Shown here in pieces: positions 3,712-25,738 of a stretch of 32,000 nt of DNA (within the stretch, counting starts at the first letter, position 1; every line of letters starts with the position of its first letter). Location of the stretch: the NCBI GenBank assembly GCA_003858585.1, contig RQZE01000003.1:60001-92000 (forward strand), in the 5' to 3' direction. The DNA comes from Erysipelotrichaceae bacterium OH741_COT-311. Its GTDB lineage: Bacteria > Bacillota_I > Bacilli_A > Erysipelotrichales > Erysipelotrichaceae. The translations under genes and the position numbers were made by a program. A model generated the notes under the pieces. It did not search any database. It saw only the letters and a list, made by a program, of their open reading frames with translations, and was not told where the DNA came from.

Positions 3712-3803
3712 AAAAACTCCTTTATAAATTATGTTAGAATATATAAGTAATATATTAACTTAAATATTATACATCTTTGATGTTAATTTAAAAAGGAGTT
3801 ATC
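3712..3803. promoter_or_regulatory. Divergent promoter region
   Basis: On the + strand there is an extended -10, TGtTAGAAT, at 3732-3740, with GGAG at 3795-3798 before ATG 3804. On the - strand, TATAAT (ATTATA on +) lies at 3766-3771 and TG is adjacent. The -35 elements are weak on both sides. Confidence 0.45.
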
Positions 3804-4403: not shown

Positions 4404-4408
4404 CCAGT

Positions 4409-5212: not shown

Positions 5213-5213
5213 T

Positions 5214-6107
5214 ATGAAATTCTTGATAATGAATAACTTTGAAATATCGATTGAAATTGAACAAATACTTAAGGGAAAGTATGAGATTGAATATGTAAAT
5301 GATAATCAAGCATATGGTGGAGACAAACAGTGTATTATAGGTGTTATATGCAATGGATTTTTTAGATACAATGACATTAAAGATTTTCCTAATCTAAAAT
5401 TTATACAGTTGTTAAGTATGGGTATGGATCAAATAGATCTAGAGTATTGCAAAAAACATTTTATTACCGTAAAAAATGCTGGAGATACCTATGCAATACC
5501 TATTGCTGAGTATGTGGTAGGAGCTTTATTGACTTTATTTCGTGGGATTCATCTTCATTTGCATCATCAAAAGGAAAAACAATGGATAAAGATTCGACAG
5601 TTACAAGAATTGAACGAACAAAAAGCTATGATTTTAGGCACAGGTAACATTGGTCGAGAAATTGCAAAACGTTTAAAGGCTTTTAATGTTTATGTATGTG
5701 GTTATAATCAAAGCGGTAAAAAAGTAGATTATTTTGATCAGGTAATTCATCAAGATTTATACGAACATCTTAGTCATTATGATATAGTAGTATGCACGTT
5801 ACCTTTGACAGATAAGACAAATCAAATGATTAATGATGATTTTTTTACACATTGTAAAAATGGAATAGTTTTTGTGAATGTTTCACGTGGACAATTAGTT
5901 GATGAATTATCATTAATTAGAAATATGAAACAAGGGAAAGTTGATAAGGCTATTTTAGATGTATATGAACAAGAACCGTTAAATCCAGAAAGTGAATTAT
6001 ATACATTTAAACATTGTATTTTAAGCCCACACAATTCTTATGTTTCTGCAGGAAATTATCAACGTTTAAAAGCGATTATTGCAAATAATATAAGGAGCAT
6101 TGTATGA
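5214..6107 (+). CDS. D-isomer-specific 2-hydroxyacid dehydrogenase, NAD(P)-binding
   Basis: 'ILGTGNIGREIAKRL' is a GxGxxG motif. 'VNVSRGQLVDE', 'LDVYEQEP' and 'SPHNS' supply the Arg/Glu/His catalytic pattern of this family. Confidence 0.85.
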   Translation: MKFLIMNNFEISIEIEQILKGKYEIEYVNDNQAYGGDKQCIIGVICNGFFRYNDIKDFPNLKFIQLLSMGMDQIDLEYCKKHFITVKNAGDTYAIPIAEYVVGALLTLFRGIHLHLHHQKEKQWIKIRQLQELNEQKAMILGTGNIGREIAKRLKAFNVYVCGYNQSGKKVDYFDQVIHQDLYEHLSHYDIVVCTLPLTDKTNQMINDDFFTHCKNGIVFVNVSRGQLVDELSLIRNMKQGKVDKAILDVYEQEPLNPESELYTFKHCILSPHNSYVSAGNYQRLKAIIANNIRSIV

Positions 6108-7177
6108 CAAAAGTTTTAATTGTCGCATCTGTATTAAGCCATGTGGCTCAATTTCATAAACCTCTTATTGCAATGTTGAAGGATAAAGGTTGTGTAGTAG
6201 ATGTTGTAGCAAGAGATAATTTAAAAGATAAGGATCAACTCCAGTTAGAAAATATTGATCATTTTTTTAATGTCGATTTTTCACGAAACCCATTTACTTT
6301 AAAAAATGTAAAAGCGTATTTTGAATTAAAGAAAATCATTGATGAAAATTCCTATAATATTGTACATTGCAATACTCCTGCAGCTAGTGTTCTTACACGC
6401 CTAGTTCATCCGTTAAAGAGATGTTATCGTTTAATATATACAGCACATGGCTTTCATTTTTATAAAGGTGCAAGTAAGAAGAATTGGCTGATATATTATC
6501 CGATTGAGAAGATACTTTCAAAATTTACTGATGATATTGTGACCATTAATAAAGAAGATTACGCCTGTGCAGTAAATAAATTTTACTGTAATGTTCACTA
6601 TATTAATGGTGTTGGTATCCATACAAAAAGATTTCACCCTAAAAAAGAAGAATCTAAAAATCTAATTCCTCAAATTTTGTGTGTTGGAGAACTTAATGAT
6701 AATAAAAATCAATTATTTTTATTAGAAGCTTTAACAAAAATAAAAGAGACTAGGTATCAATTGCAACTAGCTGGAAATGGTCCCAACAGGGAGAAAATAG
6801 AGCAATTTATTAAAGAGCATAGAATGGAAAATTCTGTAAACTTGCTAGGTTATCGAAGTGATTTGGAATTAATTCTTAAAGATACTGATATTTTGGTAAG
6901 TGTAAGTAAACGTGAAGGATTGCCTATGAATGTGTTAGAAGCTATGTATGTTGGTGTAGCTATTCTTTGTAGTGATAATCGTGGTCATCGAGATTTAATT
7001 GATAATGGAGTTAATGGATTTATTACATACACAATGGATGATTTGGTTGATAAATTAAATTGGTTGATGAAAGATAAAGGGTTAAGAGAACAATTAGCAA
7101 AAAATGCTCATACAAAAGCATTGTTATATACCGATGTTGAAGTTGTCAAACAGTTGGAAAAACTATATAACATATAG
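6104..7177 (+). CDS. GT4 (GT-B fold) glycosyltransferase
   Basis: 'EGLPMNVLEAMYVGVAILCSDNRGHRDLIDNGVNGF' is an E(x7)E region. The start overlaps the upstream stop as ATGA. Confidence 0.85.
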   Translation: MTKVLIVASVLSHVAQFHKPLIAMLKDKGCVVDVVARDNLKDKDQLQLENIDHFFNVDFSRNPFTLKNVKAYFELKKIIDENSYNIVHCNTPAASVLTRLVHPLKRCYRLIYTAHGFHFYKGASKKNWLIYYPIEKILSKFTDDIVTINKEDYACAVNKFYCNVHYINGVGIHTKRFHPKKEESKNLIPQILCVGELNDNKNQLFLLEALTKIKETRYQLQLAGNGPNREKIEQFIKEHRMENSVNLLGYRSDLELILKDTDILVSVSKREGLPMNVLEAMYVGVAILCSDNRGHRDLIDNGVNGFITYTMDDLVDKLNWLMKDKGLREQLAKNAHTKALLYTDVEVVKQLEKLYNI

Positions 7178-7207
7178 CTGACATGCGTGTTATTACAACC
7201 TATTTTA

Positions 7208-7216
7208 TGCTATAAT
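7208..7216 (+). promoter_or_regulatory. Possible internal promoter with an extended -10 (TGcTATAAT)
   Basis: TGCTATAAT lies at 7208-7216 in the only sizeable intergenic gap of the operon (7178-7234). AAGGAAG at 7221-7227 precedes ATG 7235. I saw no convincing -35. Confidence 0.35.
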
Positions 7217-7234
7217 CTTTAAGGAAGTGATAAA

Positions 7235-9058
7235 ATGAGTCAAACATTACGAAAATATAGAAGTAGCATTATTTTTCTAATCGATATGATAGCTGTATTA
7301 GGATCATATATTTTTTCGTTGCTTATTCGTTTTGAATTTGATGTAAAAACAACATTGATATATTTTAATGTCTTTCAACATTTAATTCTATATATCATAG
7401 TTATTTATACAAGCTTCTTTATACTTTTTAAAGTCAATAAAAGTGTATGGAAGTTTACTAGTATTGAAGACAGTATTAGAATCTTTTTAGCAAGCTTTAT
7501 TTCAAATGGGTTGTTGTTTTTAGTGTATAGCTTTAGCTTAAAAGAAGGATTGCCACGTAGTATCTTCTTTTTTAGTGCATTTATAACTCCTGGTTTTTTA
7601 CTAGGTATGCGTGTGCTTTATCGTTATCTCATGTATAAAGGAAATTTGAAAGCACGTAATAAAAATGCCTTGATTATTGGGGCTGGAGATGCCGGGAATA
7701 TTTTAAGTAAAGAGATTTATGCAAATGATGCGTATAATTGTCGTATTGTTGGCTTTGTGGATGATTCGAGCTTTAAACAAGGACGCATGGTAAATGGGAT
7801 TCCTGTTTTAGCCAAGATTGATCAGCTAAAAGAAGTGGTAGAGAAATACCATGTTGATGAAATATATATCGCTATGCCAAGTGTCAGTTCAACACGCTTA
7901 AAAGAAATCTTAGACCAATGCAATGGCTTAGTAAAAGTGGTTAAGATTATGAGCTTAGATGAAGTAAGCTCAACGAAAAAAGCAGTATTACGTTCGGTTT
8001 CCATCGAGGATTTACTTGGTCGAGGTGTAATTGAAATTGATAATTCAGATATTAGTTTCTATCTAACAGATAAAGTTGTTATGGTAACTGGAGGAGGAGG
8101 TTCGATTGGCTCTGAGTTAGTGCGTCAAATTCTAACCTTTAATCCAAAAGAAGTTATTATTTTTGATATTTATGAAAATAATATGTATGCCATTCAACAA
8201 GAAATTATTATTAAACAAAGATTAAAACAAGTGAACCCAGATATTAACATTACTTGCATTATTGGTTCGGTGCGTGAAAAGGCTCGATTGGATGAAATTA
8301 TGCAGGAATATAAGCCTAGTGTTGTATTCCACGCTGCTGCTCATAAACATGTGCCTTTAGTTGAAGACTCACCAAAAGAAGCGATAAAAAACAATGTGTT
8401 TGGAACATATAATACGATTTTATCTTGTATTGAACATAAGGTGGATAAGTTTATCTTGATTTCAACGGATAAAGCGGTTTATCCAACTAATGTCATGGGT
8501 GCTACCAAGCGTTTATGTGAAATGATTGTACAGTCTTTTAAAGATAATGGTGTAACTAAGATTGGGGCTGTTCGTTTTGGAAATGTGCTGGGGTCAAATG
8601 GTTCTGTGATTCCGCTTTTTGAAAAGCAAATACAAAATGGTGGACCGGTAACGGTTACTGATAAAAATATTACACGTTATTTTATGACCATTCCTGAAGC
8701 TGCAAAACTTGTCTTACAGGCAGGGGCATATGCCAATAAAGGAGATATTTTTGTTTTAGATATGGGTCAGCCTGTTAAGATTTTAACACTAGCTGAGAAT
8801 TTAATTAAGCTATCAGGACTTGTTCCTTATGAAGATATCCAAATCGAATTTACGGGGCTAAGACCTGGTGAAAAAATGTATGAGGAATTATCTTTAGGAA
8901 ATGAAGTTCGTTATAAAACAAAGAATAATCTTATTTATGTAAATGAACCGATGAATATTTCACAGGAAAGTATTGCTGAAAAGATAAAAGCATTAGAGTC
9001 TGCAATGGATTTGGATAACCATGAAGTGAAGCAGATTGTATTAGGGATTATTGATTAG
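7235..9058 (+). CDS. Membrane-bound CapD/PglF/EpsC-type UDP-N-acetylglucosamine 4,6-dehydratase (polysaccharide biosynthesis protein)
   Basis: There are four N-terminal TM helices. 'LIIGAGDAGN' and 'VTGGGGSIGSEL' are Rossmann motifs. 'STDKAVYPTNVMGATKRLCE' is the catalytic block typical of CapD-like extended SDRs. Confidence 0.9.
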   Translation: MSQTLRKYRSSIIFLIDMIAVLGSYIFSLLIRFEFDVKTTLIYFNVFQHLILYIIVIYTSFFILFKVNKSVWKFTSIEDSIRIFLASFISNGLLFLVYSFSLKEGLPRSIFFFSAFITPGFLLGMRVLYRYLMYKGNLKARNKNALIIGAGDAGNILSKEIYANDAYNCRIVGFVDDSSFKQGRMVNGIPVLAKIDQLKEVVEKYHVDEIYIAMPSVSSTRLKEILDQCNGLVKVVKIMSLDEVSSTKKAVLRSVSIEDLLGRGVIEIDNSDISFYLTDKVVMVTGGGGSIGSELVRQILTFNPKEVIIFDIYENNMYAIQQEIIIKQRLKQVNPDINITCIIGSVREKARLDEIMQEYKPSVVFHAAAHKHVPLVEDSPKEAIKNNVFGTYNTILSCIEHKVDKFILISTDKAVYPTNVMGATKRLCEMIVQSFKDNGVTKIGAVRFGNVLGSNGSVIPLFEKQIQNGGPVTVTDKNITRYFMTIPEAAKLVLQAGAYANKGDIFVLDMGQPVKILTLAENLIKLSGLVPYEDIQIEFTGLRPGEKMYEELSLGNEVRYKTKNNLIYVNEPMNISQESIAEKIKALESAMDLDNHEVKQIVLGIID

Positions 9059-9065
9059 GTGTTTT

Positions 9066-10040
9066 ATGAAGCCTCTTGTATCGGTAATTATTCCAGCTTA
9101 TAATGCGGAAAAAACAATTGAACGATGCATACATAGTGTTATCAATCAAACTTATCAAAACATAGAAGTGATTGTTGTTGATGATGGATCTATTGATAAT
9201 ACTTTTTTGCTATGTGAAAAGTATATGGAATTAAGTAATTTTATTTATCATAAACAAGAAAACCAGGGAGTATCTAGTGCACGCAATAAAGGAATCAAAC
9301 TGTCAAGTGGAGAGTATATTGCTTTTGTGGATAGTGATGACTACATTAAAGAAAAAATGATTGAAGTATATATTCATCATTTGGATAAAGATTTAGTATG
9401 TTCGTCTGTTTTGAATTCCATACTACACTTAAAAGATAAAGAAAAAATTAGCCAATATAATAGTTTAAAAGATATAGATAAAGATTTATACTTTTTATTA
9501 ATTAATGGATTTTTTACTTCTCCCGTTTGCAAATTGTATAAAAGAAAGTATATTGATACATTTTTTGATATTGATATTTCTTATGGAGAGGATCTACTTT
9601 TTAATTTAAAATATTTTTCTAATATAAGTTCAATTATTTTTATACATGAGCAACTTTATTTTTATGATCTTAGTGATAGTGGTTTAACGAAAAAATTACA
9701 CGAGGATGAGTTTGAGACTATTTTAAAATTATCAAAAAGTTTTTTGGAATTTTATAAAGATAAAATCAGTAATACGAAAGTGATAAATGAAAAGTTATAT
9801 GATTTTTTGGCTAACTATTTTGTTGTGTTTTTTCAAAAATATTGTTTTAAACATAAGCTATGGGACTTGCGTTTAAAGCCATATTTAAAGAATAAAGAGT
9901 ATCAATTTATTTTAAAAAATAGCACGAATTCTTCTTTAAACATGAAGGTTTTAAAAACAAATTCCGCATTGCTTATTGCATCTTTTTTCAAATGCAAACA
10001 ACTCGTGAAATTTGTACTAGCAAGAGGTAAAAAGATATGA
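9066..10040 (+). CDS. GT2 glycosyltransferase
   Basis: The protein carries 'VSVIIPAYNAEKTIERCIHSVINQTYQNIEVIVVDDGS' and 'VDSDDY' (DxD). I prefer ATG 9066, after AGGTG at 9056-9060, over the track's TTG at 9051. Confidence 0.85.
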   Translation: MKPLVSVIIPAYNAEKTIERCIHSVINQTYQNIEVIVVDDGSIDNTFLLCEKYMELSNFIYHKQENQGVSSARNKGIKLSSGEYIAFVDSDDYIKEKMIEVYIHHLDKDLVCSSVLNSILHLKDKEKISQYNSLKDIDKDLYFLLINGFFTSPVCKLYKRKYIDTFFDIDISYGEDLLFNLKYFSNISSIIFIHEQLYFYDLSDSGLTKKLHEDEFETILKLSKSFLEFYKDKISNTKVINEKLYDFLANYFVVFFQKYCFKHKLWDLRLKPYLKNKEYQFILKNSTNSSLNMKVLKTNSALLIASFFKCKQLVKFVLARGKKI

Positions 10041-10993
10041 GTTTAATTAGCGTAATTGTTCCGGTATATAATGTTGAAGCTTATTTAAGACGTTGTTTAA
10101 ATTCTTTGCAAAAACAATACTATAAAAATCTTGAAATAATTGTTGTTGATGATGGTTCAACCGATCAAAGTTATCGTATTGCAAAAGAATATGAATTTCA
10201 AGATGCTCGTTTTAAAGTTGTTCAAAAAGCAAATGGTGGTTTATCATCAGCCAGAAACTTTGGGTTACAATATGCTTCAGGAGATTATATTTCTTTTATT
10301 GATTCCGATGACTTTATTAGTGAAGATTATTATTCTCTAATGATGAACTATATAAATAAAGATACAATTGTCATGTGTTATTTTCAACGTTTTACAAAAG
10401 AAGAGGAATTAAATCGTTTCGATGAATATAAAGTGAAATCCTATACCAATAAAGAAGCATTGAATCTTCTTTATAGTGATGATTATGTACAGACGGTAAT
10501 TGCATGTAATAAGTTGGTACCAAAAGACTTAGTACAAAAAAATCTATTTCCTTTAGGTGTCATTTATGAAGATGAAGCTACCACGTATAAGTGGTTAGAT
10601 CAATGTAAAACGGTAACTATTGTTACAAAACCAATGTATTATTACTTCATTCGTGAGGGATCTATTACGAAAGTAAAGTATCATAAGCGTCGTTTTGATT
10701 ACTTACAAGCTTTAAAAGATCGAGTGAGTTACTTCTCAAATCATAATGTTGAGATGTATGCCAAGACAGTGAAAGCTTGGTTTTATGCAACATTTGAATT
10801 TATGATGGAATTAAAAGTAAATCACATCAAAGATGATGAGAAAAAACATATTCTATATCTTCAACGCAAGGAAAGTTACCATTTATTGAGAAAAATAAAG
10901 TATTTTTCGCTTAAGACAAGATGTATGTACCATTTGGCATATTATGTTCCATTTTTATATTATGCCAAATTGAAAGGAGTGCAACATGATTAA
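10037..10993 (+). CDS. GT2 glycosyltransferase
   Basis: The protein carries 'ISVIVPVYNVEAYLRRCLNSLQKQYYKNLEIIVVDDGSTD' and 'IDSDDF'. The start overlaps the upstream stop as ATGA. Confidence 0.85.
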   Translation: MSLISVIVPVYNVEAYLRRCLNSLQKQYYKNLEIIVVDDGSTDQSYRIAKEYEFQDARFKVVQKANGGLSSARNFGLQYASGDYISFIDSDDFISEDYYSLMMNYINKDTIVMCYFQRFTKEEELNRFDEYKVKSYTNKEALNLLYSDDYVQTVIACNKLVPKDLVQKNLFPLGVIYEDEATTYKWLDQCKTVTIVTKPMYYYFIREGSITKVKYHKRRFDYLQALKDRVSYFSNHNVEMYAKTVKAWFYATFEFMMELKVNHIKDDEKKHILYLQRKESYHLLRKIKYFSLKTRCMYHLAYYVPFLYYAKLKGVQHD

Positions 10994-12065
10994 AGTATTA
11001 CAAGTCATCGGTTCTTTGAATATTGGTGGAGCTGAAAATATGATTGTATCTTGGCATGAAGGTATTAACCCGAATGAATTTCAGTTTGACTACATTGTAT
11101 TTAATGAAGAAAATAGTGATTATAAAAACCGTGTTGAAAAAATAAACGGTCGTATTTTTAATCTGCCAAGTCCAACTCGAAATCCGTTTAAGTTTTATCG
11201 TATGCTTAAAGAGATACAAAAGCAATATCACTATGACATCCTTCATGCACATACACTTTTTAGTAATGGAATTATTTTAAAGATGGCAAAGCATCTTGGA
11301 TTTAAAAAACGTATTTCGCATAGTCATAGTGGAAAAAACAGAGTTAAAGAAAATGCCGTTACAGTAGCCTATGGCAAGTGGATGCAGGCATTGATTCAAC
11401 AAGAGGCAGATGTATATTTGGCGTGCAGTGAAAGTGCCGGTAATTTCTTGTATGGTGAAGCTTTTTTCAAACAATATGGAACATTGATTGAAAATGCCAT
11501 TTTAGCGGAAGCTTTCACTTACAAGGCAGAACTTGCTCAAGCATTAAAAAAACAATATCATTTAGAAGATTCTATTGTAATTGGAATGGTCGCAAGATTT
11601 CATGAAGTGAAAAATCATACTTTCATGATTGAAGTATTAAAGAGTTTAGTGCAAATTCATCCAAAGTATACATTAGTCTTAGCTGGGGATGGTCCCTTAT
11701 TGCATGAAATCCAAGCGAAAGTAAAAGATAATCATCTGGAAAAACATGTATTGTTTTTAGGAATGGTGAATAACGTCAAAGAGCTTTTAAATGTGTTTGA
11801 TGTGGTAGTTATGCCATCCTTCCATGAAGGATTTCCACTGGCGTTATTAGAAGCACAAGCCAACGGTGTAGCGACCATGATCTCAAATGCGATTACACAA
11901 GAAGTAAAACTTGCGGATAACTTAATGCATTTGCCACTTGAAGTAGATGCTTGGGTATCGGCAATTGTAAATATGCAACAAAGCAAACGTATAAATCATA
12001 TTCTAAATACCAAGTATGACTTAAAGACTTCTATTTTAAAATTGGAAGAGATTTATCGTAGATAA
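10986..12065 (+). CDS. GT4 (GT-B fold) glycosyltransferase
   Basis: The protein carries N-terminal 'LNIGGAENM' and C-terminal 'EGFPLALLEAQANGV'. It overlaps the upstream gene by 8 nt. Confidence 0.85.
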   Translation: MIKVLQVIGSLNIGGAENMIVSWHEGINPNEFQFDYIVFNEENSDYKNRVEKINGRIFNLPSPTRNPFKFYRMLKEIQKQYHYDILHAHTLFSNGIILKMAKHLGFKKRISHSHSGKNRVKENAVTVAYGKWMQALIQQEADVYLACSESAGNFLYGEAFFKQYGTLIENAILAEAFTYKAELAQALKKQYHLEDSIVIGMVARFHEVKNHTFMIEVLKSLVQIHPKYTLVLAGDGPLLHEIQAKVKDNHLEKHVLFLGMVNNVKELLNVFDVVVMPSFHEGFPLALLEAQANGVATMISNAITQEVKLADNLMHLPLEVDAWVSAIVNMQQSKRINHILNTKYDLKTSILKLEEIYRR

Positions 12066-12073
12066 GAGGTTTT

Positions 12074-13555
12074 ATGAAGAACATTACATTTAATGAGTTA
12101 TCGAAGTATTTAACTCCATATTTTATTGAACATAATATCAATCGTCATAGTGAATATGATATTTTAACGATAAATGCTAAGGATTTAATACATTATAAAC
12201 GGATTGATTTGATTGCTAAAGTTGAGTATGTAAAACATTATCTAGCTAAACAACACAATCCTTTTATGGAAGAATTGTATAAGGCTCATATTGAAGCTTT
12301 TTCCGATGGAAATTTTACAGAATTAGGAAGTGAGGAGAAAAACTCAATATCCAAATATTTAGAAAGTTTTCATCAATTGATTGATTCTATTGTGGAAGAT
12401 GGATTTAATCAAGACATTTCTTTGGTGCCGGTTGGCGATGATAATGTGATTTTAGATGGTGCTCATCGTGTTTCCATTTGTGCTGCCTTAAATAAAGAGA
12501 TTACGATTATTAAATTTAAGGGGCTTACACGTCAATATGATTTACAGCATTTTCAAAAGCATTTACTGCCTTCGATTTATCTGGATTACTTAATGCTTCA
12601 ATATGTAAAAGTAGATCCTCAAGTCTATAGTTTTATATTCTGGCCAAAGGGCGATAGTGACTATAAAGAGATTGCGATTAAAAAGATTGAAGAACACTTT
12701 CCTATTTTATATCGTAAAAAAATAGCGCTAACGTATAATGGTTTAAAGAATTTTATGATTGAAGTCTATAAAAATCATTCTTGGTTAGGGGATTATAAAA
12801 ACCATTATCAAGGTGTATATGGACAACTAGATCCTTGTTTTCAAAAGGATAAAGTACTGGAAGTACTCTTTGTAAAAGCCAATGGATTAGAAGATATGTT
12901 AAAGGTAAAGAGTGATATACGTTCTTTGTATAATATTGGAAATTATTCCATTCATTCTACAGATAATCAAGATGAAACCTTAACTGTAGCTCAACTTTTA
13001 TTGAATGAACATAGTATACATTTCTTAAACTATGGTTATCACGATGGTTATCCAAATTTTTATCGTAATCTATTGCTGTTTAAAGAACGTCTACCTGAAA
13101 GTGAAGTAGAAGCGACGATCATTGATTCTAGCAGTATTATGGCAATGTATGGGATAAGAGAAACAGAAGATGTAGATTACATAAACGTACATAGTTATGT
13201 GGTAGAAGGTTTTGACTTGCATAATGCATATGTTTCATACTATCAAGCAAATATGGAAGAATTAATATACAGTCCAAAATGTCATTTTTATTACAATGGA
13301 TTAAAGTTTATAACGTTACAAAAACTTCTGGAATTTAAATTAAAGCGTAATGAAACGAAAGATCAAATTGATGCAGCACTGATTACGAAGTTTTTAAAAC
13401 ATAATCGTACTGGTTTTTCTTATGAGAAGTTTCAAGTAGAATGGAAACGTTTTAAACGTAATAGTAATTTAAAATTACGAAGTTTTGCGAAAAAAACTTT
13501 AAAAGCATTGGGGATTTATCATTTATATAGTAAAATTGCACATAGAAAGAAATAA
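12074..13555 (+). CDS. Uncharacterised soluble multi-domain protein with an N-terminal ParB/Srx-like segment, a central NDK-like segment and a C-terminal nucleotidyltransferase-fold-like segment
   Basis: Three motif regions were seen: 'LIDSIVEDGFNQDISLVPVGDDNVILDGAHRVSICAAL' (DGxHR), 'NYSIHSTDNQDE', and 'IIDSSSIMAMYGIRETEDVDYI' with 'ITLQKLLEFKLKRNETKDQIDAALI'. AGAGG precedes the ATG. The gene sits 8 nt after the GT4 stop and ends 1 nt before the wzx start. I recognised no standard polysaccharide-enzyme family. Confidence 0.5.
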   Translation: MKNITFNELSKYLTPYFIEHNINRHSEYDILTINAKDLIHYKRIDLIAKVEYVKHYLAKQHNPFMEELYKAHIEAFSDGNFTELGSEEKNSISKYLESFHQLIDSIVEDGFNQDISLVPVGDDNVILDGAHRVSICAALNKEITIIKFKGLTRQYDLQHFQKHLLPSIYLDYLMLQYVKVDPQVYSFIFWPKGDSDYKEIAIKKIEEHFPILYRKKIALTYNGLKNFMIEVYKNHSWLGDYKNHYQGVYGQLDPCFQKDKVLEVLFVKANGLEDMLKVKSDIRSLYNIGNYSIHSTDNQDETLTVAQLLLNEHSIHFLNYGYHDGYPNFYRNLLLFKERLPESEVEATIIDSSSIMAMYGIRETEDVDYINVHSYVVEGFDLHNAYVSYYQANMEELIYSPKCHFYYNGLKFITLQKLLEFKLKRNETKDQIDAALITKFLKHNRTGFSYEKFQVEWKRFKRNSNLKLRSFAKKTLKALGIYHLYSKIAHRKK

Positions 13556-13556
13556 T

Positions 13557-15086
13557 ATGAATACACTAAGTCGTTCTTACAATTCAATTCGTAATATAGT
13601 CATTGGTTTTGCAACACAAATCATGACCTTTTTACTATCGTTTATATTAAGAACGTTTTTTATCTATTATTTTGGTAAAGAATTATTAGGTGTTAATGGA
13701 TTATATAGTAATATTTTAACGATTCTATCTTTAGCGGAATTGGGGTTAGGAACGGTTATGATTTATAGTTTATACAAGCCCATTAAAGAACAAGATCAAC
13801 TTAAAATTACTCAGTTACTTTATTATTTTAAAAAACTCTATCATTTCATTGCCTTAGTGATGTTGGTGGTAGGATTATTATGCCTGCCAATTTTGCCTTA
13901 CTTTATTGTAAGTGATTTGAATATCGCTGATTTAAGAGTCTATTATGCTTTGTTTTTATTAAATACGGTATGTAGTTACTTTAATATTTATAAAACAGCT
14001 TTAATCAACGCTGATCAAAAGCAATATCTCATAAAAAATGTAACAATGCTTGTTTTTGTAGTTACTTCACTTGTTCAAATTGGTATAGCTTTCTATTTTC
14101 AAGATTATCGTTTATATTTAATGAGTGCGATTCTTTCAACCTTAACAACAAACTATATTTTAGGGAAGGTGGCAGATAAACGTTATCCGTTTATTAAACA
14201 AAAAGTAGAAGAACTATCAAAAGAAGAAAAAACAACTATTTTTGCAAATATGAAAAGTATGTTTTTATATAAAATTGGTGTTGTGATTATGAATAATACA
14301 GATAACATCTTAATTTCAAAGCTAGTTGGAACCGTTTGGGTTGGTTTGTATTCAAATTATGGTTTGTTTGTAAATATGGTTAATTCGTTTATTAATACTT
14401 TTTTATATGGGATTTTTGCTAGTTTAGGGAACTTGAATGCGGGTGAAAATCAAAAACGAAAATATGAAATCTTTGAAATGTTGCTGTTGCTGTTTCATTG
14501 GCTAGCAGCGTTTTGTAGCATCTGTTTTATCGTATTATTTAATGATACGATTACTTTATGGATTGGTAAAGAATATCTATTTGATGAATTGGTTATCTTT
14601 GCGATTGTCTTTAATTTCTATTTAGCAAACATTGTAAATCCGGTATGGATGTATCGAGAAACAACAGGTTTGTTTCATCGTATTAAATACACTATGTTAG
14701 TATCTAGTGTTATTAATTTAGTGTTATCGATTGTCTTAGGAAAGATCTATGGTATATTTGGTATTTTAATGGCTACGGCTGTTTCACGCCTACTTACAAC
14801 CATTTGGTATGAACCATATGTCTTATTTAAAGATTATTTTAAGATACACCCATGGAAATATTATCAAAGACAGTTAACATACATCATAATTTCTGTAATT
14901 GGTTTTGCCACAACCAGATATGCTGTTTCTTATATATCGAATGTTTCATTTATAAATTTGATTGTAAAGTTACTAATATGTATTATACTTTTTAACACTA
15001 TTTTCTTAATTTTGACTTATCGAAGTAAACCATTTAGGCTAATAAAAGAAAATTATATCGACAAACGATGTAAAAGGGGGAAATAA
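13557..15086 (+). CDS. wzx: Wzx-type oligosaccharide flippase (MOP superfamily polysaccharide biosynthesis protein)
   Basis: The ~500-aa protein has about 12-14 TM helices and the typical N-terminus 'YNSIRNIVIGFATQIMTFLLSFILRTFFIYYFG'. I prefer ATG 13557 over the track's TTG at 13536, which would overlap the previous gene. Confidence 0.8.
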   Translation: MNTLSRSYNSIRNIVIGFATQIMTFLLSFILRTFFIYYFGKELLGVNGLYSNILTILSLAELGLGTVMIYSLYKPIKEQDQLKITQLLYYFKKLYHFIALVMLVVGLLCLPILPYFIVSDLNIADLRVYYALFLLNTVCSYFNIYKTALINADQKQYLIKNVTMLVFVVTSLVQIGIAFYFQDYRLYLMSAILSTLTTNYILGKVADKRYPFIKQKVEELSKEEKTTIFANMKSMFLYKIGVVIMNNTDNILISKLVGTVWVGLYSNYGLFVNMVNSFINTFLYGIFASLGNLNAGENQKRKYEIFEMLLLLFHWLAAFCSICFIVLFNDTITLWIGKEYLFDELVIFAIVFNFYLANIVNPVWMYRETTGLFHRIKYTMLVSSVINLVLSIVLGKIYGIFGILMATAVSRLLTTIWYEPYVLFKDYFKIHPWKYYQRQLTYIIISVIGFATTRYAVSYISNVSFINLIVKLLICIILFNTIFLILTYRSKPFRLIKENYIDKRCKRGK

Positions 15087-15089
15087 TCT

Positions 15090-16274
15090 ATGAAGAAACT
15101 ATATGAAATAGTAAATAACAGAGCATTATTTTTAGTTGTACTATTATTTTCTTGTTTTTACAATGCCCTTTATTATCAACCTTTAGGAATGGGTCGTAAC
15201 TATTTTTTCTATCTTAGCTGTATATGGGCCCTTTATTTTTTAATAGAAGGCTTTTTGACAAAGAAAATAAATATTGCTTCAAAATTAACGTGGAGTGCCC
15301 TTGGATTTCTAGCAGTGTTACTTATTTCAACCTTTATCAATTTTAAGCATACTTCTATGCTTTCAATTACATATCTATATAGCACGATTATGTATATCTT
15401 CGTTGTTTATCTTTATCAAGATGAAATCTATTTTGACCCTACTTACTACATTATCGTCTTTTTATTTATTGCTTCGTTGATTTCATTATTGATGTTTCTG
15501 TTTGGATATTTTAAAGAATTACCATTTGCTAAACTTGGTTATCGAACTGTATTATATGGAATTTATAATGGATCCAATGCCACCGGCTTTTGCAGTGCTA
15601 TAGCCATTTTATTATCTTTAAAGAAGATGAGTAAAATTAAATTAGTTAATAAGTGGTTAACTTTTAATATAGTAATTCAATCAATTACTTTATGGTTATC
15701 AAGATCTCAAAACAGCATTGTATTTTTAGTCATCAGTTGTGTTATATATTTTATGCTTAAAAAAACAAAGATAAAATTAAGTCAACGCTTGCTATATCGT
15801 CTATTGATAATTGGTGTACTTCTTATTGTTGTAATGATTATCATTATTTATAGTGAAGATAGTCGCTATCGCTTTTTTAATCATCTTTTTAATCGTAGAG
15901 TAGAGTTATGGTTAGATTCTTCTTTGGAACTTTTAAAACAACCAATCTTAGGATATGGGGTTGGAACATTTAATAAGATAATGTGTGGAGTAAAACCACC
16001 GGATAATTACATTTGTGTAGATGTGATACATAGTGGACATAATGTAATCTTTGATGTGTTATTTTATGGAGGGGTTTTAGGTATTATTACTTTTGGATGG
16101 TTTGTAAAAAATATCATTCAGCATAGCAATTTGGAAAATCGATATGATGCTTTTGTGTTAGTAATGTTTATTTTAATGATTTCGATGTTTGATTACAGTT
16201 TCTTATTTGCTAATTCTTTAACTGCCTTTGTATTCTTTAATGAAGCTAGAAGTGTCTTGAGGAAGCCATCATGA
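15090..16274 (+). CDS. wzy: O-antigen polymerase/ligase family (Wzy-like) membrane protein
   Basis: The protein is polytopic with a large late loop. 'SGHNVIFDVLFYGGVLGI' resembles the Wzy_C His-Asn block. It lies directly after wzx, and AGGGGG precedes the ATG. Confidence 0.7.
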   Translation: MKKLYEIVNNRALFLVVLLFSCFYNALYYQPLGMGRNYFFYLSCIWALYFLIEGFLTKKINIASKLTWSALGFLAVLLISTFINFKHTSMLSITYLYSTIMYIFVVYLYQDEIYFDPTYYIIVFLFIASLISLLMFLFGYFKELPFAKLGYRTVLYGIYNGSNATGFCSAIAILLSLKKMSKIKLVNKWLTFNIVIQSITLWLSRSQNSIVFLVISCVIYFMLKKTKIKLSQRLLYRLLIIGVLLIVVMIIIIYSEDSRYRFFNHLFNRRVELWLDSSLELLKQPILGYGVGTFNKIMCGVKPPDNYICVDVIHSGHNVIFDVLFYGGVLGIITFGWFVKNIIQHSNLENRYDAFVLVMFILMISMFDYSFLFANSLTAFVFFNEARSVLRKPS

Positions 16275-16879
16275 GTATTGTAAATGTAAAGTTACGTAAA
16301 CTGGTAAATTGGTATCATCAAAAACAGTTGAAGAACCATGATTTTTCGATTATCGCAAGCAATTGTATCGGCAGTTTCATTTGTCATGATTTACATGTGC
16401 GTTTTAATTTGCCGTTTGTAAACTTATGGTTACATGCCGATGATTTTATGAAATACTTACAAAATATGAGACATTACAATTCTTGTAATCTTACATTTAT
16501 AAAAGAAGAAGGGGTTGAATATCCGATAGGTTTGTTGGATGATATTAAGATATATTTTCAACATTATAAAAGTGAAGAAGAAGCTAAAATAAAGTGGATA
16601 CAACGAGTAAAGAGAATTAATTATGATAATCTATTTGTTATGTTTACAGATCGTGATGGTTGTACATATCAACATTTAAAGGCTTTTGAAGATCTGGATA
16701 TTAAAAATAAAGTCGTTTTTACTCATAAACCTTATTCTGAGTTTAAATCTGCCTATCATATCAAAGGCTTTGAACAACAAGATAAACTAGGGAATTTATA
16801 TGAATATAGACATCGTTTTACAGGATTTAAATATTACGATCAATTTCAGTATGTAAAGTGGTTGAATAAAGGAGAATAA
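16271..16879 (+). CDS. DUF1919-like exopolysaccharide-locus protein of unknown function
   Basis: 'FSIIASNCIGSFICHDLHVRFNLPFVNLW' resembles the N-terminal 'IISNNCWGG...SPTVGL' block I recall for DUF1919. The protein is soluble and about 200 aa. The start overlaps the upstream stop as ATGA. Confidence 0.55.
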   Translation: MSIVNVKLRKLVNWYHQKQLKNHDFSIIASNCIGSFICHDLHVRFNLPFVNLWLHADDFMKYLQNMRHYNSCNLTFIKEEGVEYPIGLLDDIKIYFQHYKSEEEAKIKWIQRVKRINYDNLFVMFTDRDGCTYQHLKAFEDLDIKNKVVFTHKPYSEFKSAYHIKGFEQQDKLGNLYEYRHRFTGFKYYDQFQYVKWLNKGE

Positions 16880-16880
16880 A

Positions 16881-17969
16881 ATGGAACGAAATAGCCGTAA
16901 TTTTCATTTGGATTTAATTAGAGTTTTTGCCTTATTTTTATTAATCGGACTACATTTTTTTCTGCACACAGGATTTTATCAGGAAGTTATTAACTCTAAT
17001 CGAGCTTTTTTAGTAACATTTTTAATTGTAATTTTCTTTTGTTGTGTTCCGTTGTTTATGCTTTTAACGGGATATTTACATTTAAATCAAACGTTAGAAA
17101 TGAAGTTTTATAAGAAACTGTTTAAAATTTATTTCACTTACTTTGTGATTGGCTGTATATGTTTTTTCTTTGAAAGTTATTATTTAGGAAGACAGCAGTC
17201 TATATTTGATTTTGTAAGAAAAACATTAGCTTTTTCCTTAGCTCCTTATGGTTGGTATGTAGAAATGTATATAGGACTTTTTCTACTTATTCCTTTTTTA
17301 GCGCTGTTGTATCGTAGTTTACCAAGTAAACTATGGAAAAAAAGATTAATATTTGTTTTAATCTTGTTAACTTCCGTTTCAAGTGTTGTAAATGCCTATG
17401 TATTTGATAGTGTATCTTGGTGGCTACAGCCTTCTTCCTCGAATGAGTTTATCAAAATTATTCCTCAATGGTGGGTTCAAATGTATCCTTTAACTTATTT
17501 TTTTATCGGATGTTATTTGCGAGAATATGGTTTAGAGATTAGTAGAAAAAATAATATCTTATATTTAGTATTATCGTTATTTTTCTTTGGTCTTTATAAT
17601 GTTTGGAGAAGTGTAGGTGGTTTATATGTTCATGGTGGTTGGAACTATTGGGAGTCTATAAATAATATAATTTTATCCTCTCTTATTTTTAATTTGTTAC
17701 TAAATATTCAATGGAGTTGGTTTCCTACATATCTTAAAACACTCATTTCAAAAATCTCCCATTTAGTATATGGTGCATATTTAATATCTTGGGTCTTTGA
17801 AGTTATTGTATATGAACATTTGAATCATTTTGTTCCTATTTCAAACAAAAGATTAGAATATTTTGTTATTGTTGTGCCTGTAATTATGATTCTTTCATTA
17901 ATAGGATCATACTTAGTTAATGTAGTTATGAAATTTGTTTTTAAATCATTTAAAACAATTAGGTTTTAA
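16881..17969 (+). CDS. Acyltransferase family 3 membrane O-acyl(acetyl)transferase (second copy)
   Basis: The protein is multi-TM and carries 'FHLDLIRVFALFLLIGLHFF' as its N-terminal block. AAAGGAG precedes the ATG. Confidence 0.8.
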   Translation: MERNSRNFHLDLIRVFALFLLIGLHFFLHTGFYQEVINSNRAFLVTFLIVIFFCCVPLFMLLTGYLHLNQTLEMKFYKKLFKIYFTYFVIGCICFFFESYYLGRQQSIFDFVRKTLAFSLAPYGWYVEMYIGLFLLIPFLALLYRSLPSKLWKKRLIFVLILLTSVSSVVNAYVFDSVSWWLQPSSSNEFIKIIPQWWVQMYPLTYFFIGCYLREYGLEISRKNNILYLVLSLFFFGLYNVWRSVGGLYVHGGWNYWESINNIILSSLIFNLLLNIQWSWFPTYLKTLISKISHLVYGAYLISWVFEVIVYEHLNHFVPISNKRLEYFVIVVPVIMILSLIGSYLVNVVMKFVFKSFKTIRF

Positions 17970-17970
17970 C

Positions 17971-17998
17971 AAGTGTATAGCAGTACACTTTTATTATT
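17971..17998 (+). terminator. Weak AT-rich stem-loop ending the first operon
   Basis: AAGTGTA (17971-17977) pairs with TACACTT (17984-17990) around a 6-nt loop. TTATTATT follows. The hairpin starts 2 nt after the TAA stop. Confidence 0.4.
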
Positions 17999-18026
17999 AG
18001 CATTTTTATGTATTTTTTGATAAAAT
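17997..18026 (+). promoter_or_regulatory. Promoter candidate: TTAGCA, 18 nt, extended -10 TGaTAAAAT
   Basis: TTAGCA lies at 17997-18002. TG lies at 18018-18019 and TAAAAT at 18021-18026, upstream of ATG 18053. Confidence 0.4.
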
Positions 18027-18052
18027 TATTGTGGATTTTAATGGGTGATTGT

Positions 18053-18727
18053 ATGAAAGAGATTTTACTTGTAATACCTGCTTATAATGAACAGGATAAT
18101 ATATTAAATGTATTAAAAGATATTGAAGATAATTTATCGAATTGTGATTATCTTTTTGTTAATGACTGTTCAAGTGATGGTACAGGTAAACTGTTAGATG
18201 AACACAACATCAATCATATTGATTTGCCGATTAACTTAGGACTGGCGGGTGCTGTACAAGCTGGTTATAAATATGCCTATTATCATGGATATCAAGCTGC
18301 TATTCAATTTGATGGAGATGGACAACACAAAGCCATCTACATTCATCAAATGAAACAAGAATTGGATAAGGGCTATGATATTGTCATTGGATCACGTTTT
18401 GTAAAGCAAAAGAAATCATTGAGTTTACGTATGCTTGGTAGTCGTATAATCTCGTTTTTAATTAAGCTTAAAACGGGTGTGACAATTAAAGATCCAACGA
18501 GCGGTATGCGTTTAATGAATCGTAAATTAATCTATGATTATGCTTTTAATATGAATCGCAAACCGGAGCCGGATACATTGGTGTATCAAATCGCTAAGGG
18601 AGCCAAGATCAAAGAAGTACAAGTGGAAATGAATGATCGTTTATATGGTTCAAGTATTTATCATAGTACATTTAATTCTGTAAAATATATGATTAATATC
18701 ATGATTTCGATTATCTTTTTTAACTAG
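18053..18727 (+). CDS. Short GT2 of the GtrB/CsbB/DPM1 type (polyprenyl-phosphate hexose/HexNAc synthase) without C-terminal TM helices
   Basis: The protein carries 'ILLVIPAYNEQDNILNVLKDI', 'VNDCSSDGT', 'QFDGDGQH' and 'DPTSGMRLMNRKL'. It ends after about 225 aa with only about 12 hydrophobic residues. I prefer ATG 18053 over the TTG at 18008. Confidence 0.75.
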   Translation: MKEILLVIPAYNEQDNILNVLKDIEDNLSNCDYLFVNDCSSDGTGKLLDEHNINHIDLPINLGLAGAVQAGYKYAYYHGYQAAIQFDGDGQHKAIYIHQMKQELDKGYDIVIGSRFVKQKKSLSLRMLGSRIISFLIKLKTGVTIKDPTSGMRLMNRKLIYDYAFNMNRKPEPDTLVYQIAKGAKIKEVQVEMNDRLYGSSIYHSTFNSVKYMINIMISIIFFN

Positions 18728-18736
18728 GAGGAAACT

Positions 18737-19108
18737 ATGTCATTACAAGTACAAATTTTATTAATTATTGGATCTGTCTTATTCTTCCTATTTTTAGTAC
18801 GTAATATAAAAAAATCAAAGTTATCGATTGAAATGGCTGTCATATGGGTGCTTTGGGGTATAGGCATTATTGTCATCAGTATATTTCCACAACTTGTATA
18901 TAAATTAACTCGTATGATTGGGATACAGGCTCCAATCAATACCATCTTCTTAATTATGATTTTCTTATTATATACCTTAACGTTTTTTCTGTATATTAAG
19001 ATTTCTGTTTTAGAAGATAAAACAAAGAGTGCTATTCAAGAAATTGCATTGCTTAGAAAGGAATTAGAAGATTATGCTGGTAAGCATCGTAATTCCAATC
19101 TACAATAG
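18737..19108 (+). CDS. DUF2304-like small membrane protein (3 TM plus a C-terminal amphipathic/coiled-coil tail)
   Basis: Three hydrophobic helices are followed by 'LEDKTKSAIQEIALLRKELEDY'. AGGAGG lies 9 nt after the GT2 stop. I recall the GT2 plus DUF2304 pairing as common, but could not verify it here. Confidence 0.55.
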   Translation: MSLQVQILLIIGSVLFFLFLVRNIKKSKLSIEMAVIWVLWGIGIIVISIFPQLVYKLTRMIGIQAPINTIFLIMIFLLYTLTFFLYIKISVLEDKTKSAIQEIALLRKELEDYAGKHRNSNLQ

Positions 19109-20009
19109 TGAAGTTTATTTAGAAAAATGCTTAGATTCTTTGATTCAACAAACTTACCAACAGATTGAAATCATTTGTGTAAATGATGGTTCCACCGATG
19201 GTTCCTTGGATTGTTTAAATAAGTATGGGATAAAAGATAAACGTTTGAAAATCATTACAATTGAAAATGCCGGGCAAGGAAATGCACGTAATGTAGGTAT
19301 GTTGCACGCATCTGGTGAGTATTTGATGTTTATTGATAGCGATGATTATGTTGATAAGGATTATGTAGAGCGCTATGTAGAATGTGTAAGTGATTATGAT
19401 CTTGTTTATGGCTACATTCACCGTATTTTTGAAGATAGACCAAATTATTTAGAGAAAAGCTTTAAGTATCAAGCGAGTGAAAGTCAAAAGGAAGGTCGTG
19501 TGAATGAGGTACCAAGTGTTATTTTAGATGTCATCAATGCTCCTTATGCTAAGTTAATTCGCAAGGCTTTCTTATTAGAACACGAAGTATTCTTTCCTGT
19601 AGGAATGATTTATGAAGATGCGGTTTTTACACAGAAACTATTAAGCTATAATCCTAAAGTATATGGTATGGATTACATGGGTTATCAATACATTGTACAT
19701 AAAGGTTCAACCATGACAAACAACCGTAAGATTACAGATATGTTTAAAGCTGCAGAATTAATTCTAAATCAATATCAACAGACACCTTACTATTCGTTAG
19801 TGAAGCAAGAATTAGACTATTATATTTTTCATCACGTAGCGATTGGTTTGGTATATCGACAATTTAAATTTAATCCATTTAAGGTTATAAAAATGATAAA
19901 AGAAACAAAGACATTCTTAAGGAAACATAATATAGAATTAAAAAAGAACGGTTATTTAAAGAGACAAGGGTTTATAATCAAGGCTTTTTATCAATTATAT
20001 CGAGGTTAA
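19074..20009 (+). CDS. GT2 glycosyltransferase
   Basis: The protein carries 'VSIVIPIYNSEVYLEKCLDSLIQQTYQQIEIICVNDGSTDGS' and 'IDSDDY'. It overlaps the upstream gene by 35 nt. Confidence 0.85.
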   Translation: MLVSIVIPIYNSEVYLEKCLDSLIQQTYQQIEIICVNDGSTDGSLDCLNKYGIKDKRLKIITIENAGQGNARNVGMLHASGEYLMFIDSDDYVDKDYVERYVECVSDYDLVYGYIHRIFEDRPNYLEKSFKYQASESQKEGRVNEVPSVILDVINAPYAKLIRKAFLLEHEVFFPVGMIYEDAVFTQKLLSYNPKVYGMDYMGYQYIVHKGSTMTNNRKITDMFKAAELILNQYQQTPYYSLVKQELDYYIFHHVAIGLVYRQFKFNPFKVIKMIKETKTFLRKHNIELKKNGYLKRQGFIIKAFYQLYRG

Positions 20010-20012
20010 TAT

Positions 20013-25703: not shown

Positions 25704-25723
25704 ATTTGTGTACTTATAAACTA

Positions 25724-25732
25724 TGTTATAAT
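25724..25732 (+). promoter_or_regulatory. Extended -10 promoter (TGtTATAAT) placed for a leaderless yfhO transcript
   Basis: TG lies at 25724-25725 and TATAAT at 25727-25732. Only 6 nt (ACAACC) separate the -10 from ATG 25739, and there is no Shine-Dalgarno. Confidence 0.45.
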
Positions 25733-25738
25733 ACAACC

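Follow-up and report, generated by a model that had tools for sequence, protein, structure and literature searches.

What does a gene of no recognizable family do in the middle of a polysaccharide operon, placed between a glycosyltransferase gene and a flippase gene? This question is raised by the gene at 12074..13555 (+), hereafter the target gene, of a stretch of 32,000 nucleotides (the window) from Erysipelotrichaceae bacterium OH741_COT-311 (assembly GCA_003858585.1, contig RQZE01000003.1, positions 60,001 to 92,000 of the forward strand). A preliminary description, made from the sequence, had read three nucleotide-handling segments in its product and had suggested an undescribed step in which a substituent, linked through a phospho- or nucleotidyl group, is activated or transferred. 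That interpretation is partly supported by the analysis reported here: the structural reading of all three domains held, and the functional proposal appears compatible with our results. The reading we favor, to which we assign a probability of roughly 0.45, is that the target would be a nucleoside triphosphate (NTP)-dependent glycan kinase of an undescribed family, acting on the lipid-linked repeat unit before it is flipped.

The target gene and its junctions

The target open reading frame (ORF) begins with ATG and encodes 493 amino acids (aa), which make up three globular domains and a basic tail. Its start codon lies 8 nt beyond the stop codon of the upstream glycosyltransferase family 4 (GT4) gene (10986..12065, +; Pfam Glycos_transf_1 / Glyco_transf_4), and a Shine-Dalgarno sequence, AGAGG (12065..12069, +), can be read directly from the DNA, overlapping that stop codon. 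At the other end, the ATG of the downstream Wzx-like flippase gene, at 13557, falls 1 nt past the target stop, and the longest ORF of that gene, from a TTG at 13536, gives a 20-nt overlap. The target gene is translationally coupled to both of these neighbors, and no terminator-like sites were found between the genes from 3000 to 19000 of the window. The extent of the ORF, its length and the 8-nt and 1-nt junctions had been described correctly (the latter for the ATG at 13557), and the peptide segments quoted from it were all found at the residues given for them.

The syntenic locus in an Erysipelotrichaceae metagenome-assembled genome (L008) carries a 97%-identical ortholog, from which the target differs by 34 synonymous and 17 non-synonymous codons. 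Because of these counts, we regard the target as a functional gene under purifying selection. Homologs matched the 493-aa protein with E values from 0 to 1e-122; the ORF is real and conserved, and is not a chance reading frame. Searches of Pfam, NCBIfam, PADLOC and the sequences of the PDB with the target protein gave no significant match, which bears out the earlier remark that it belongs to no recognizable polysaccharide-enzyme family, and searches with a 36-sequence profile of the target family were likewise without a significant match. Profiles for LicD, Stealth, TagF, and pyruvyl- and acetyl-transferases did not match the target in Pfam or NCBIfam at E<=10. The AlphaFold2 (AF2) model built from the 36-sequence alignment was confident (pLDDT 92.6, pTM 0.92) and compact, with three globular domains followed by two C-terminal helices.

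Three domains with nucleotide-type sites

The N-terminal domain (residues 1-182; 12074..12619, +) is ParB/Srx-like with a helical insert, an assignment drawn from residue conservation, a profile alignment to E. coli YbdM, matches in BFVD and the UniRef name of one homolog. Among 197 aligned segments of the family, R43, D45, K49, Y69, E83, K89, G129, H131 and R132 were near-invariant. The signature block FHQLIDSIVEDGFNQDISLVPVGDDNVILDGAHRVSICAAL (residues 99-139; 12368..12490, +) contains the predicted nucleotide-phosphate-binding G129-x-H131-R132, and the block LIDSIVEDGFNQDISLVPVGDDN-VILDGAHRVSI aligned by profile (hhalign) to the ParB-like YbdM (LQKSIEIDGFTQPIVVTHTDKNAMEIVDGFHRHEI) over 34 columns, 41% of them identical, at P=9.4e-4, the cross-domain controls giving P=0.14-0.64. 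When the full-length model was compared with BFVD, viral ParB/Sulfiredoxin, ParB-like nuclease and GmrSD-N proteins were matched (E 0.04-0.2 and probability up to 1.0 for the ParB ones), and one source, the UniRef entry for homolog P0005, bears the name 'ParB/Sulfiredoxin domain-containing protein'. Pfam PF02195 (ParBc) matched neither the target nor any of 36 homologs. The YbdM alignment, the viral matches and the P0005 name agree with the DGxHR core of the ParB/sulfiredoxin fold that had been picked out by eye, and we consider the ParB/Srx assignment of this domain moderately to well supported. Its helical insert (residues ~45-90) is specific to the family and carries the invariant Y69, E83 and K89.

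Canonical ParB proteins have a helix-turn-helix (HTH) and a C-terminal dimerization domain and are found in a parA/parS context, whereas the target has NDK-like and nucleotidyltransferase-like domains and is found in glycan loci. Sulfiredoxin has its catalytic Cys in G-G-C-H-R, where the target and the family consensus have Ala130 (D-G-A-H-R). In SerK of Thermococcus, SbnI of S. aureus and sulfiredoxin, the ParB/Srx fold acts as an ATP/ADP-binding phosphotransferase on a hydroxyl or sulfinate, and not on DNA, and the signature preceding a helix is common to these proteins and the target; outside the signature no sequence similarity was detectable, and the target differs in its helical insert, its two added domains and its presumed glycan acceptor. 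SerK has been described as a ParB-fold ATP/ADP-dependent hydroxyl kinase (PMC5120207), and SerK, SbnI and sulfiredoxin have been summarized as ParB-fold kinases or phosphotransferases (PMC12704722).

The middle domain (residues 183-321; 12620..13036, +) has a ferredoxin fold like that of nucleoside-diphosphate kinase (NDK), as judged from Foldseek matches in the PDB, NDK matches in BFVD, the register of a profile alignment, and conservation. The best 50 Foldseek matches in the PDB were all NDK or NDK-domain proteins, headed by mimivirus NDK 3fcw with a template-modelling (TM) score of 0.67 on the target and a probability of 1.0. Near-invariant residues were Y213, K215, Y232, W237, K279, R283, S292, H294, D297 and E301. 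His294 (codon 12953..12955, +), which is 95% conserved, lies in register with the phospho-accepting catalytic His of NDK: hhalign against E. coli Ndk placed H294-S-T-D297 on H117-G-S-D120, the His of the H-x-x-D motif, Y232 on the active-site Tyr of helix A (Y52) and R283 on the 'HRD' Arg (R88), with an alignment E value of 0.12 that is not significant by sequence alone. The Pfam NDK profile (PF00334) had no match in the target and matched one of 36 homologs, at E 0.009. The family departs from NDK in the new invariant residues K215 and K279, in having the domain built into a three-domain protein and in falling below the Pfam threshold. The preliminary description had read here an NDK layout with a phospho-His motif; the fold and the register of His294 stood, but the domain is not a canonical NDK, since the Kpn-loop residues and the beta1 Lys are missing. 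Support for the NDK-like fold as such is strong.

The C-terminal domain (residues 322-447; 13037..13414, +) resembles Pol-beta nucleotidyltransferases (NTases), on the grounds of a domain model (pLDDT 94.7 when modelled alone), weak Foldseek matches in the PDB and conservation. Its conserved residues are G360, R362, D366, D368, H383, K411, K422, R425, K429, D430 and D433. By our count, about 20 of its 27 Foldseek matches in the PDB were Pol-beta NTases, including giant-virus and vaccinia poly(A) polymerases, TUT7, CCA enzymes, MNT, GLD-2 and the DUF1814-type JHP933 (4o8s, TMq 0.49), all of them weak (best E 0.54, TMq <=0.49, none at E<=1e-3). D366-V-D368 (13169..13177, +; D366 91% and D368 89% conserved) is a candidate metal-binding DxD, and the spacing S352/S353/S354-x(11-13)-D366-V-D368-Y could be read from the window, with the Gly of the hG[GS] motif replaced (D351-S352). 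We take the pattern of D366, D368, K422, D430 and D433 to resemble AbiEii/MenT motifs I, III and IV. Minimal NTases of the DUF1814/AbiEii/MenT type (for example H. pylori JHP933) were the best structural neighbors and have in common with the C-domain a Ser-rich turn, a DxD and a later K...KD..D helix; the C-domain differs in that its matches have E>=0.5, that it has no Pfam match, that it is only 126 aa long and that it occurs outside a toxin-antitoxin or defense context. For this NTase-like segment, too, the earlier reading stood, on weaker fold evidence: the Ser-rich turn, the conserved DxD and the K...KD..D helix are present, and the fold matches are weak (E 0.54, TM ~0.48). We consider a Pol-beta NTase-like fold moderately to weakly supported.

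The basic tail (residues 448-493; 13415..13552, +) was modelled by AF2 as two helices, 449-479 and 482-492, that are partly amphipathic. Between residues 445 and 493 there are 15 K/R and 2 D/E, with a peak hydrophobic moment of 0.54, and we propose from this composition that the tail may be a membrane-interface anchor. Fusion proteins of the family have, in its place, linkers that lead to FkbM or DUF1919.

A large family with unequal modules

An exhaustive hidden Markov model search recovered at least 4,210 representative clusters (50% identity) at E<=1e-3, of which 1,742 had E<1e-30; many of the 4,210 representatives are proteins of 700-4,050 aa. The word-indexed homolog search gave only 48 clusters, a second search with a 75-sequence profile gave the same 48 proteins, and the genome scan for family loci was run with an 8-sequence alignment. 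When 10 representatives were looked up, none gave a name for the three-domain module itself, the sole name being 'FkbM family methyltransferase' for a 2,570-aa fusion (P0123). The three-domain family was not described in the literature found, a coverage that stops short of the terminator survey of Mann, Kimber & Whitfield 2019, and the architecture is absent from a Pfam-based survey of ParB-CTPase fusions (PMC12704722).

The carriers include Erysipelotrichaceae, Bacillus, Paenibacillus, Trichococcus, Alkalibacterium, Lachnospiraceae, Oscillospiraceae, Epulonipiscium and Vallitalea, and also Gallaecimonas, Ilyobacter and Jannaschia plasmids, and a cyanobacterium-like contig. Homologs in Klosneuvirinae giant viruses (E down to 8e-16) are annotated 'glycosyltransferase'. 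The family ranges over Firmicutes, Proteobacteria, Fusobacteria, the cyanobacterium-like contig and giant viruses; tblastn of the target against phages found no homolog.

All motifs were intact in 164 of the 197 aligned segments, and near-invariant polar residues were present in all three domains. C-domain motifs were altered or absent in 17 segments that had the N-terminal (N) and middle (M) domains intact, and changes in N or M were rare, so that the modules are not all essential to the same degree. One homolog consists of N and M only (P0044) and is located in a glycan locus, and an N-only ORF was found in Vallitalea. The loss of the C-domain with N and M kept, together with the occurrence of N+M-only proteins, suggests that the ParB/Srx and NDK-like domains are the obligate core. 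The ORF upstream of P0044, which overlaps its start (L028 2572-3381), was considered as a separate C-domain and rejected, as it has no detectable similarity to the target C-domain; it has a '...VILRNYDNL...GDVDIL' pattern reminiscent of another type of NTase. One distant protein, P0048 (L030 8001-9401), consists of M and C only and is encoded on a giant-virus-like contig, beside an mRNA cap (guanine-N7) methyltransferase gene. Some of the viral matches in BFVD are annotated 'mRNA capping enzyme', and others, from Yasminevirus and Catovirus, are fusions annotated 'glycosyltransferase'. One branch of the module may therefore modify RNA ends.

Genomic neighborhoods and fusions

Nearly all of the bacterial contexts examined were glycan loci, a pair of genes in Alkalibacterium being the exception, and in these loci the target homolog was often translationally coupled to a glycosyltransferase (GT) gene. 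A flippase gene of the MOP/Wzx type was adjacent in the first five of five contexts. The Wzx-like subfamily of the window is nearly always a neighbor of the module: it was encoded directly downstream in 8 distinct genomes (the window and L008 counted as one), and 4 others had it no more than a few kb away. Its members share 36-49% identity between Bacillales, Lactobacillales, Clostridia and Erysipelotrichales, which is unusually high for Wzx; the subfamily is co-inherited with the target. Orthologs were seen at L001, L007, L012, L013, L016, L020, L021 and L023. Most of the loci thus had a Wzx-type flippase gene beside the homolog, and some were of the Wzm/Wzt type.

The flippase gene of the window (13557..15086, +; alternative TTG start at 13536) had been called wzx. 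Its protein had no match in Pfam or NCBIfam, and a profile of the Wzx-like proteins had none among PDB sequences, but orthologs do match: a Paenibacillus ortholog, 49% identical, had a weak match to Polysacc_synt (E 0.0038, residues 13-290), and three of nine orthologs matched NCBIfam WZX_like (E 1.9e-5). A divergent MOP/Wzx-type flippase is moderately supported by these sequence matches.

Among 43 long members of the family, FkbM methyltransferase domains were found in 25, GT2 in 20, GT10 in 10 and TPR in 7, and others had DUF1919. One module-FkbM fusion (P0078) is encoded directly after Wzm and a fragmented Wzt with the C-terminal Wzt_C domain. The Wzt ATPase upstream of this fusion (L033 7660-8941) is spread over at least three ORFs, which hold the Walker A motif, the signature and Walker B, and Wzt_C, and the split reflects either an assembly frameshift or a pseudogene. 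The locus of a module-DUF1919 fusion contains Wzm, Wzt with Wzt_C, a class-I methyltransferase and GT10. No Pfam-recognizable kinase was found in either of these two Wzm/Wzt_C loci. The 2,570-aa P0123 (L034 10001-17713) combines FkbM, the module, GT10, Methyltransf_24, two GT2 domains and TPR, and is encoded in a flagellar cluster, where its neighbors are an MptE/Maf-like gene and TPR-GT41 proteins, a setting that implies use of the module in flagellin glycosylation.

DUF1919 is also present in the window as a stand-alone gene (16271..16879, +), three genes downstream of the target, and in P0089/P0217 the module itself carries this domain at its C-terminus. The fusion cluster (L035 10001-12175) was seen on dozens of contigs. 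Fusion in other bacteria and a separate gene in the window suggest that DUF1919 and the target module are functionally linked, a Rosetta-stone link between two uncharacterized families; the literature on DUF1919 was uninformative as to its function. Two other roles were considered and rejected: an anti-phage defense or toxin (AbiEii-like) role, on account of 0 matches in PADLOC and the glycan-locus neighborhoods, and replacement of a bacterial tyrosine (BY) kinase, since some loci also carry Wzz or a BY-kinase.

A putative glycan kinase

From the folds, conserved residues, operon position, fusions and neighborhoods, we infer a phosphotransfer and its acceptor, the point at which it takes place and what each site contributes, as follows. 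The target would be a cytoplasmic, membrane-associated, NTP-dependent phosphotransferase, non-homologous to WbdD, which would act on the undecaprenyl-diphosphate-linked repeat unit at the cytoplasmic face, after the glycosyltransferases and before the co-inherited Wzx-like flippase. Its ParB/Srx domain would bind NTP through G129-x-H131-R132, as SerK, SbnI and sulfiredoxin do; the tightly packed NDK-like domain would offer a second nucleotide or phosphate site, with His294 as phospho-relay residue or general acid/base; and the two together would be the obligate catalytic core. The NTase-like C-domain would be an accessory nucleotide- or acceptor-binding or catalytic module, lost in some lineages, and the basic C-terminal helices would keep the enzyme at the membrane. 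At loci whose transporter is of the ATP-binding cassette (ABC) type, the module with FkbM might serve as a WbdD-like terminator, its (methyl-)phosphate cap being read by the C-terminal domain of Wzt. Direct phosphorylation of the glycan is the simpler reading because of the FkbM fusions, the Wzt_C neighbors and the dispensable C-domain.

Wzt with a C-terminal carbohydrate-binding module (CBM) exports only chains that bear the terminal cap; methyl-phosphate caps come from methyltransferase-kinase pairs, the kinases of O3/O9a and of O7 being unrelated in sequence and in predicted structure; and the O7 kinase was an unannotated domain beside a methyltransferase (all PMC11231755). WbdD of E. coli O9a and K. 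pneumoniae O3 is described as a kinase-methyltransferase that terminates chains by phosphorylating a sugar hydroxyl and then methylating (PMC11231755; PMC3482155), and by analogy the same chemistry is proposed for the target. The likeness lies in an enzyme of a glycan locus that is paired or fused with a methyltransferase, with two module loci beside Wzm and Wzt_C, the place where one would look for a chain terminator. The kinase of WbdD has a eukaryotic-like protein-kinase fold. The target has no sequence or fold relation to it, being composed of ParB/Srx, NDK-like and NTase-like domains, and the locus in the window is of the Wzx/Wzy type and lacks a methyltransferase; Pfam and fold searches with the target gave no match to a protein-kinase-like or aminoglycoside-kinase-like fold with a catalytic Asp.

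The N-terminal methyltransferase-kinase of K. pneumoniae O7 ORF6 (AmiN-like) offers a precedent, in that an unannotated domain of a multidomain glycan synthase, beside a methyltransferase, proved to be the methyl-phosphate kinase, and its layout (methyltransferase, kinase, spacer, GT, GT) resembles that of P0096 (FkbM, module, TPR, GT2, GT10). The O7 kinase is one 223-aa aminoglycoside-kinase-like domain with a catalytic Asp, whereas the target module is 450 aa of three different folds. LicD and fukutin are NTase-fold DxD enzymes that add phospho-linked groups to glycans, as the preliminary description had supposed for the target; however, the target has no Pfam LicD match, its fold matches include neither FKRP nor LicD, and no genes for CDP-alcohol synthesis are conserved nearby. 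The target is outside NDK, ParB proper, sulfiredoxin, the WbdD/APH-type kinases, LicD, Stealth, TagF and the defense families.

Several observations weigh against a glycan kinase. The phosphate is proposed by analogy only. FkbM-type methyltransferases usually methylate hydroxyls; a fused FkbM methyltransferase could work independently of the module, a methyl-only cap requires no kinase, and the window lacks a methyltransferase. A simple kinase would not need as many as three nucleotide-type sites, and the well-conserved DxD/K/D..D set of the C-domain is left unexplained. Taken alone, neither the NDK nor the NTase assignment reaches significance at the level of sequence. The hhalign alignment to Ndk has W190 at the position of the beta1 Lys (K12) and a deletion of the Kpn-loop segment with T94, R105 and N115, and position 294 is Tyr in five sequences (P0025, P0027, P0046, P0180 and P0189), some of which have degenerate C-domain motifs as well; with NDK ligands missing and His294 replaced by Tyr in these five, a canonical phospho-His mechanism is not assured. 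Last, in Alkalibacterium sp. f15 (L003 10001-13526) a homolog and a 22%-identical Wzx-like gene are isolated, with no glycosyltransferases nearby. Their neighbors are ribonuclease/barstar, NERD and bactofilin genes, and a model of repeat-unit modification leaves the pair unexplained.

Alternative functions

The same domains could instead belong to a multi-step activate-and-transfer enzyme that gives a phosphodiester-linked substituent on the repeat unit, which is near the idea of the preliminary description. Phosphorylation of a small alcohol, of the sort that SerK and SbnI carry out on serine, would fall to the ParB/Srx domain; the NDK-like domain would recharge the nucleotide, and the NTase-like domain would make an NDP-linked donor or transfer the phospho-alcohol to the glycan in the manner of LicD/fukutin. 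Such an enzyme would account for three separate nucleotide-type sites, all of them conserved, and for a C-domain with the conserved DxD, the S-x(11-13)-DxD spacing and NTase fold matches; ParB-fold small-molecule kinases exist, and the compact model would permit channelling. We consider it unlikely, because 17 segments that keep N and M have a C-domain that is degenerate or missing and glycan loci include some that encode N+M-only proteins, because no substituent-supplying gene is conserved alongside the family in the contexts examined, because neither Pfam nor fold searches gave any similarity to LicD, FKRP or TagF, and because the strong linkage to methyltransferases would be left unexplained.

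We also find improbable a three-site phospho-relay, in which the phospho-His of the central NDK-like domain would shuttle phosphoryl or pyrophosphoryl groups between the ParB/Srx and NTase-like sites, a chemistry without known enzymatic precedent that would make the target the founder of a wholly new class of glycan-tailoring enzymes. Its logic would be analogous to that of pyruvate phosphate dikinase and of the Campylobacter glutamine kinase Cj1418. The product, for example a nucleotide-activated or unusual phospho-group, would be methylated by the fused FkbM and read by dedicated Wzx flippases and Wzt CBMs, and the modification would also be used by giant viruses and in flagellin glycosylation.

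That the target has no catalytic role, and is an NTP-dependent switch or scaffold like the ParB CTPases, gating the glycosyltransferase complex or coupling it to the flippase or ABC transporter, seems very unlikely. Switching is the best-known role of the ParB-CTPase fold, which is versatile in its fusions and nucleotide specificity, the linkage to flippase genes is tight, and His294 is replaceable by Tyr; but two or three pockets have near-invariant residues of catalytic type, the cis fusions are to enzymes (methyltransferase, GT, DUF1919) and not to transporters, and the model has no HTH or dimerization domain. There is an equally slender chance that the enzyme acts on precursors, its NDK-like pocket taking an NDP-sugar so that the nucleotide sugar is phosphorylated or tailored before GT use. 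NDK folds bind NDPs, coupling to a GT gene is frequent and GT fusions are common, which would suit such a role; the basic tail, with its possible membrane binding, and the linkage to flippases and Wzt_C fit an assembled lipid-linked glycan better, and no conserved partner genes for a precursor were found in the contexts examined. Least probable of all is a nucleotidyltransferase whose catalytic C-domain adds NMP to the glycan or to a carrier, at a sugar hydroxyl or a phosphate, the other domains binding or supplying NTP: JHP933 (4o8s, TMq 0.49) and poly(A) polymerases are among its fold matches and D366, D368, K422, D430 and D433 are conserved, but the fold is matched only weakly (best E 0.54), the other two domains are better conserved than the C-domain, which some lineages can dispense with, and to our knowledge nucleotidylated bacterial glycans are essentially without example.

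The polysaccharide locus of the window

By its Pfam content, the window contains a Wzx/Wzy-type locus for a cell-wall or capsule polysaccharide. The gene order is PglC-like Bac_transf, HpcH/HpaI-like, 2-hydroxyacid dehydrogenase, GT4, CapD-like dehydratase, GT2, GT2, GT4 and the target, followed by Wzx-like, Wzy_C, DUF1919 and Acyl_transf_3, and then by a GT2/DUF2304/GT2/DUF6056 set, an LCP (LytR-CpsA-Psr) protein and two YfhO paralogs.

The HpcH/HpaI aldolase/citrate-lyase-like gene and the D-2-hydroxyacid dehydrogenase gene (4409-6107) follow the priming transferase and precede the first GT4. They were considered as a pathway with the target and rejected, as they are missing from L008 and from every other context. 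Since these genes are absent from the syntenic L008, no dedicated substituent pathway travels with the target. The pair looks like a strain-specific cassette, possibly for a glycerate- or lactate-type hydroxy-acid substituent.

Farther downstream, the genes for GT2 (239 aa), DUF2304, GT2 and DUF6056 occupy 18008-21305, and two tandem YfhO paralogs of 906 and 892 aa occupy 25706-31097. The set and the YfhO pair have the look of an addition to the Wzx/Wzy locus, namely machinery for extracytoplasmic glycosylation that depends on a lipid carrier. The LCP protein (23335-25665) has an N-terminal region that matches phosphonate-binding/NMT1-type periplasmic binding domains, an unusual fusion. Three ORFs had no Pfam match at E<=0.01, namely 21320-23236 (638 aa), which is placed between the DUF6056 and LCP genes, 36-656 (206 aa) and 31109-31756(-) (215 aa). 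Just upstream of the locus, 2134-3711 (-) encodes, in divergent orientation, a 525-aa protein with only a weak PP-loop ATPase signature (QueC / Asn_synthase, E ~1e-4).

Implications

What is new here is the three-domain architecture in glycan assembly. It defines a large family that has neither annotation nor a Pfam model, comprising the 4,210 or more clusters in at least four bacterial phyla and giant viruses, with members in loci for capsule, O-antigen, exopolysaccharide and flagellin glycans. Pfam-based surveys of the ParB-CTPase fold (PMC12704722) overlook entire branches of this kind. Co-inheritance with one Wzx subfamily makes the pair a tractable system for the study of substrate recognition by flippases. 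If the target is a glycan kinase or terminator, it would add to WbdD and the Klebsiella O7 enzyme a third non-homologous route by which chains are capped with methyl phosphate or phosphate. The same reading, if true, would give the ParB/Srx fold and the NDK-like fold their first catalytic role in polysaccharide assembly, and would make the target a candidate gene for the unexplained phosphate groups on Gram-positive exopolysaccharides.

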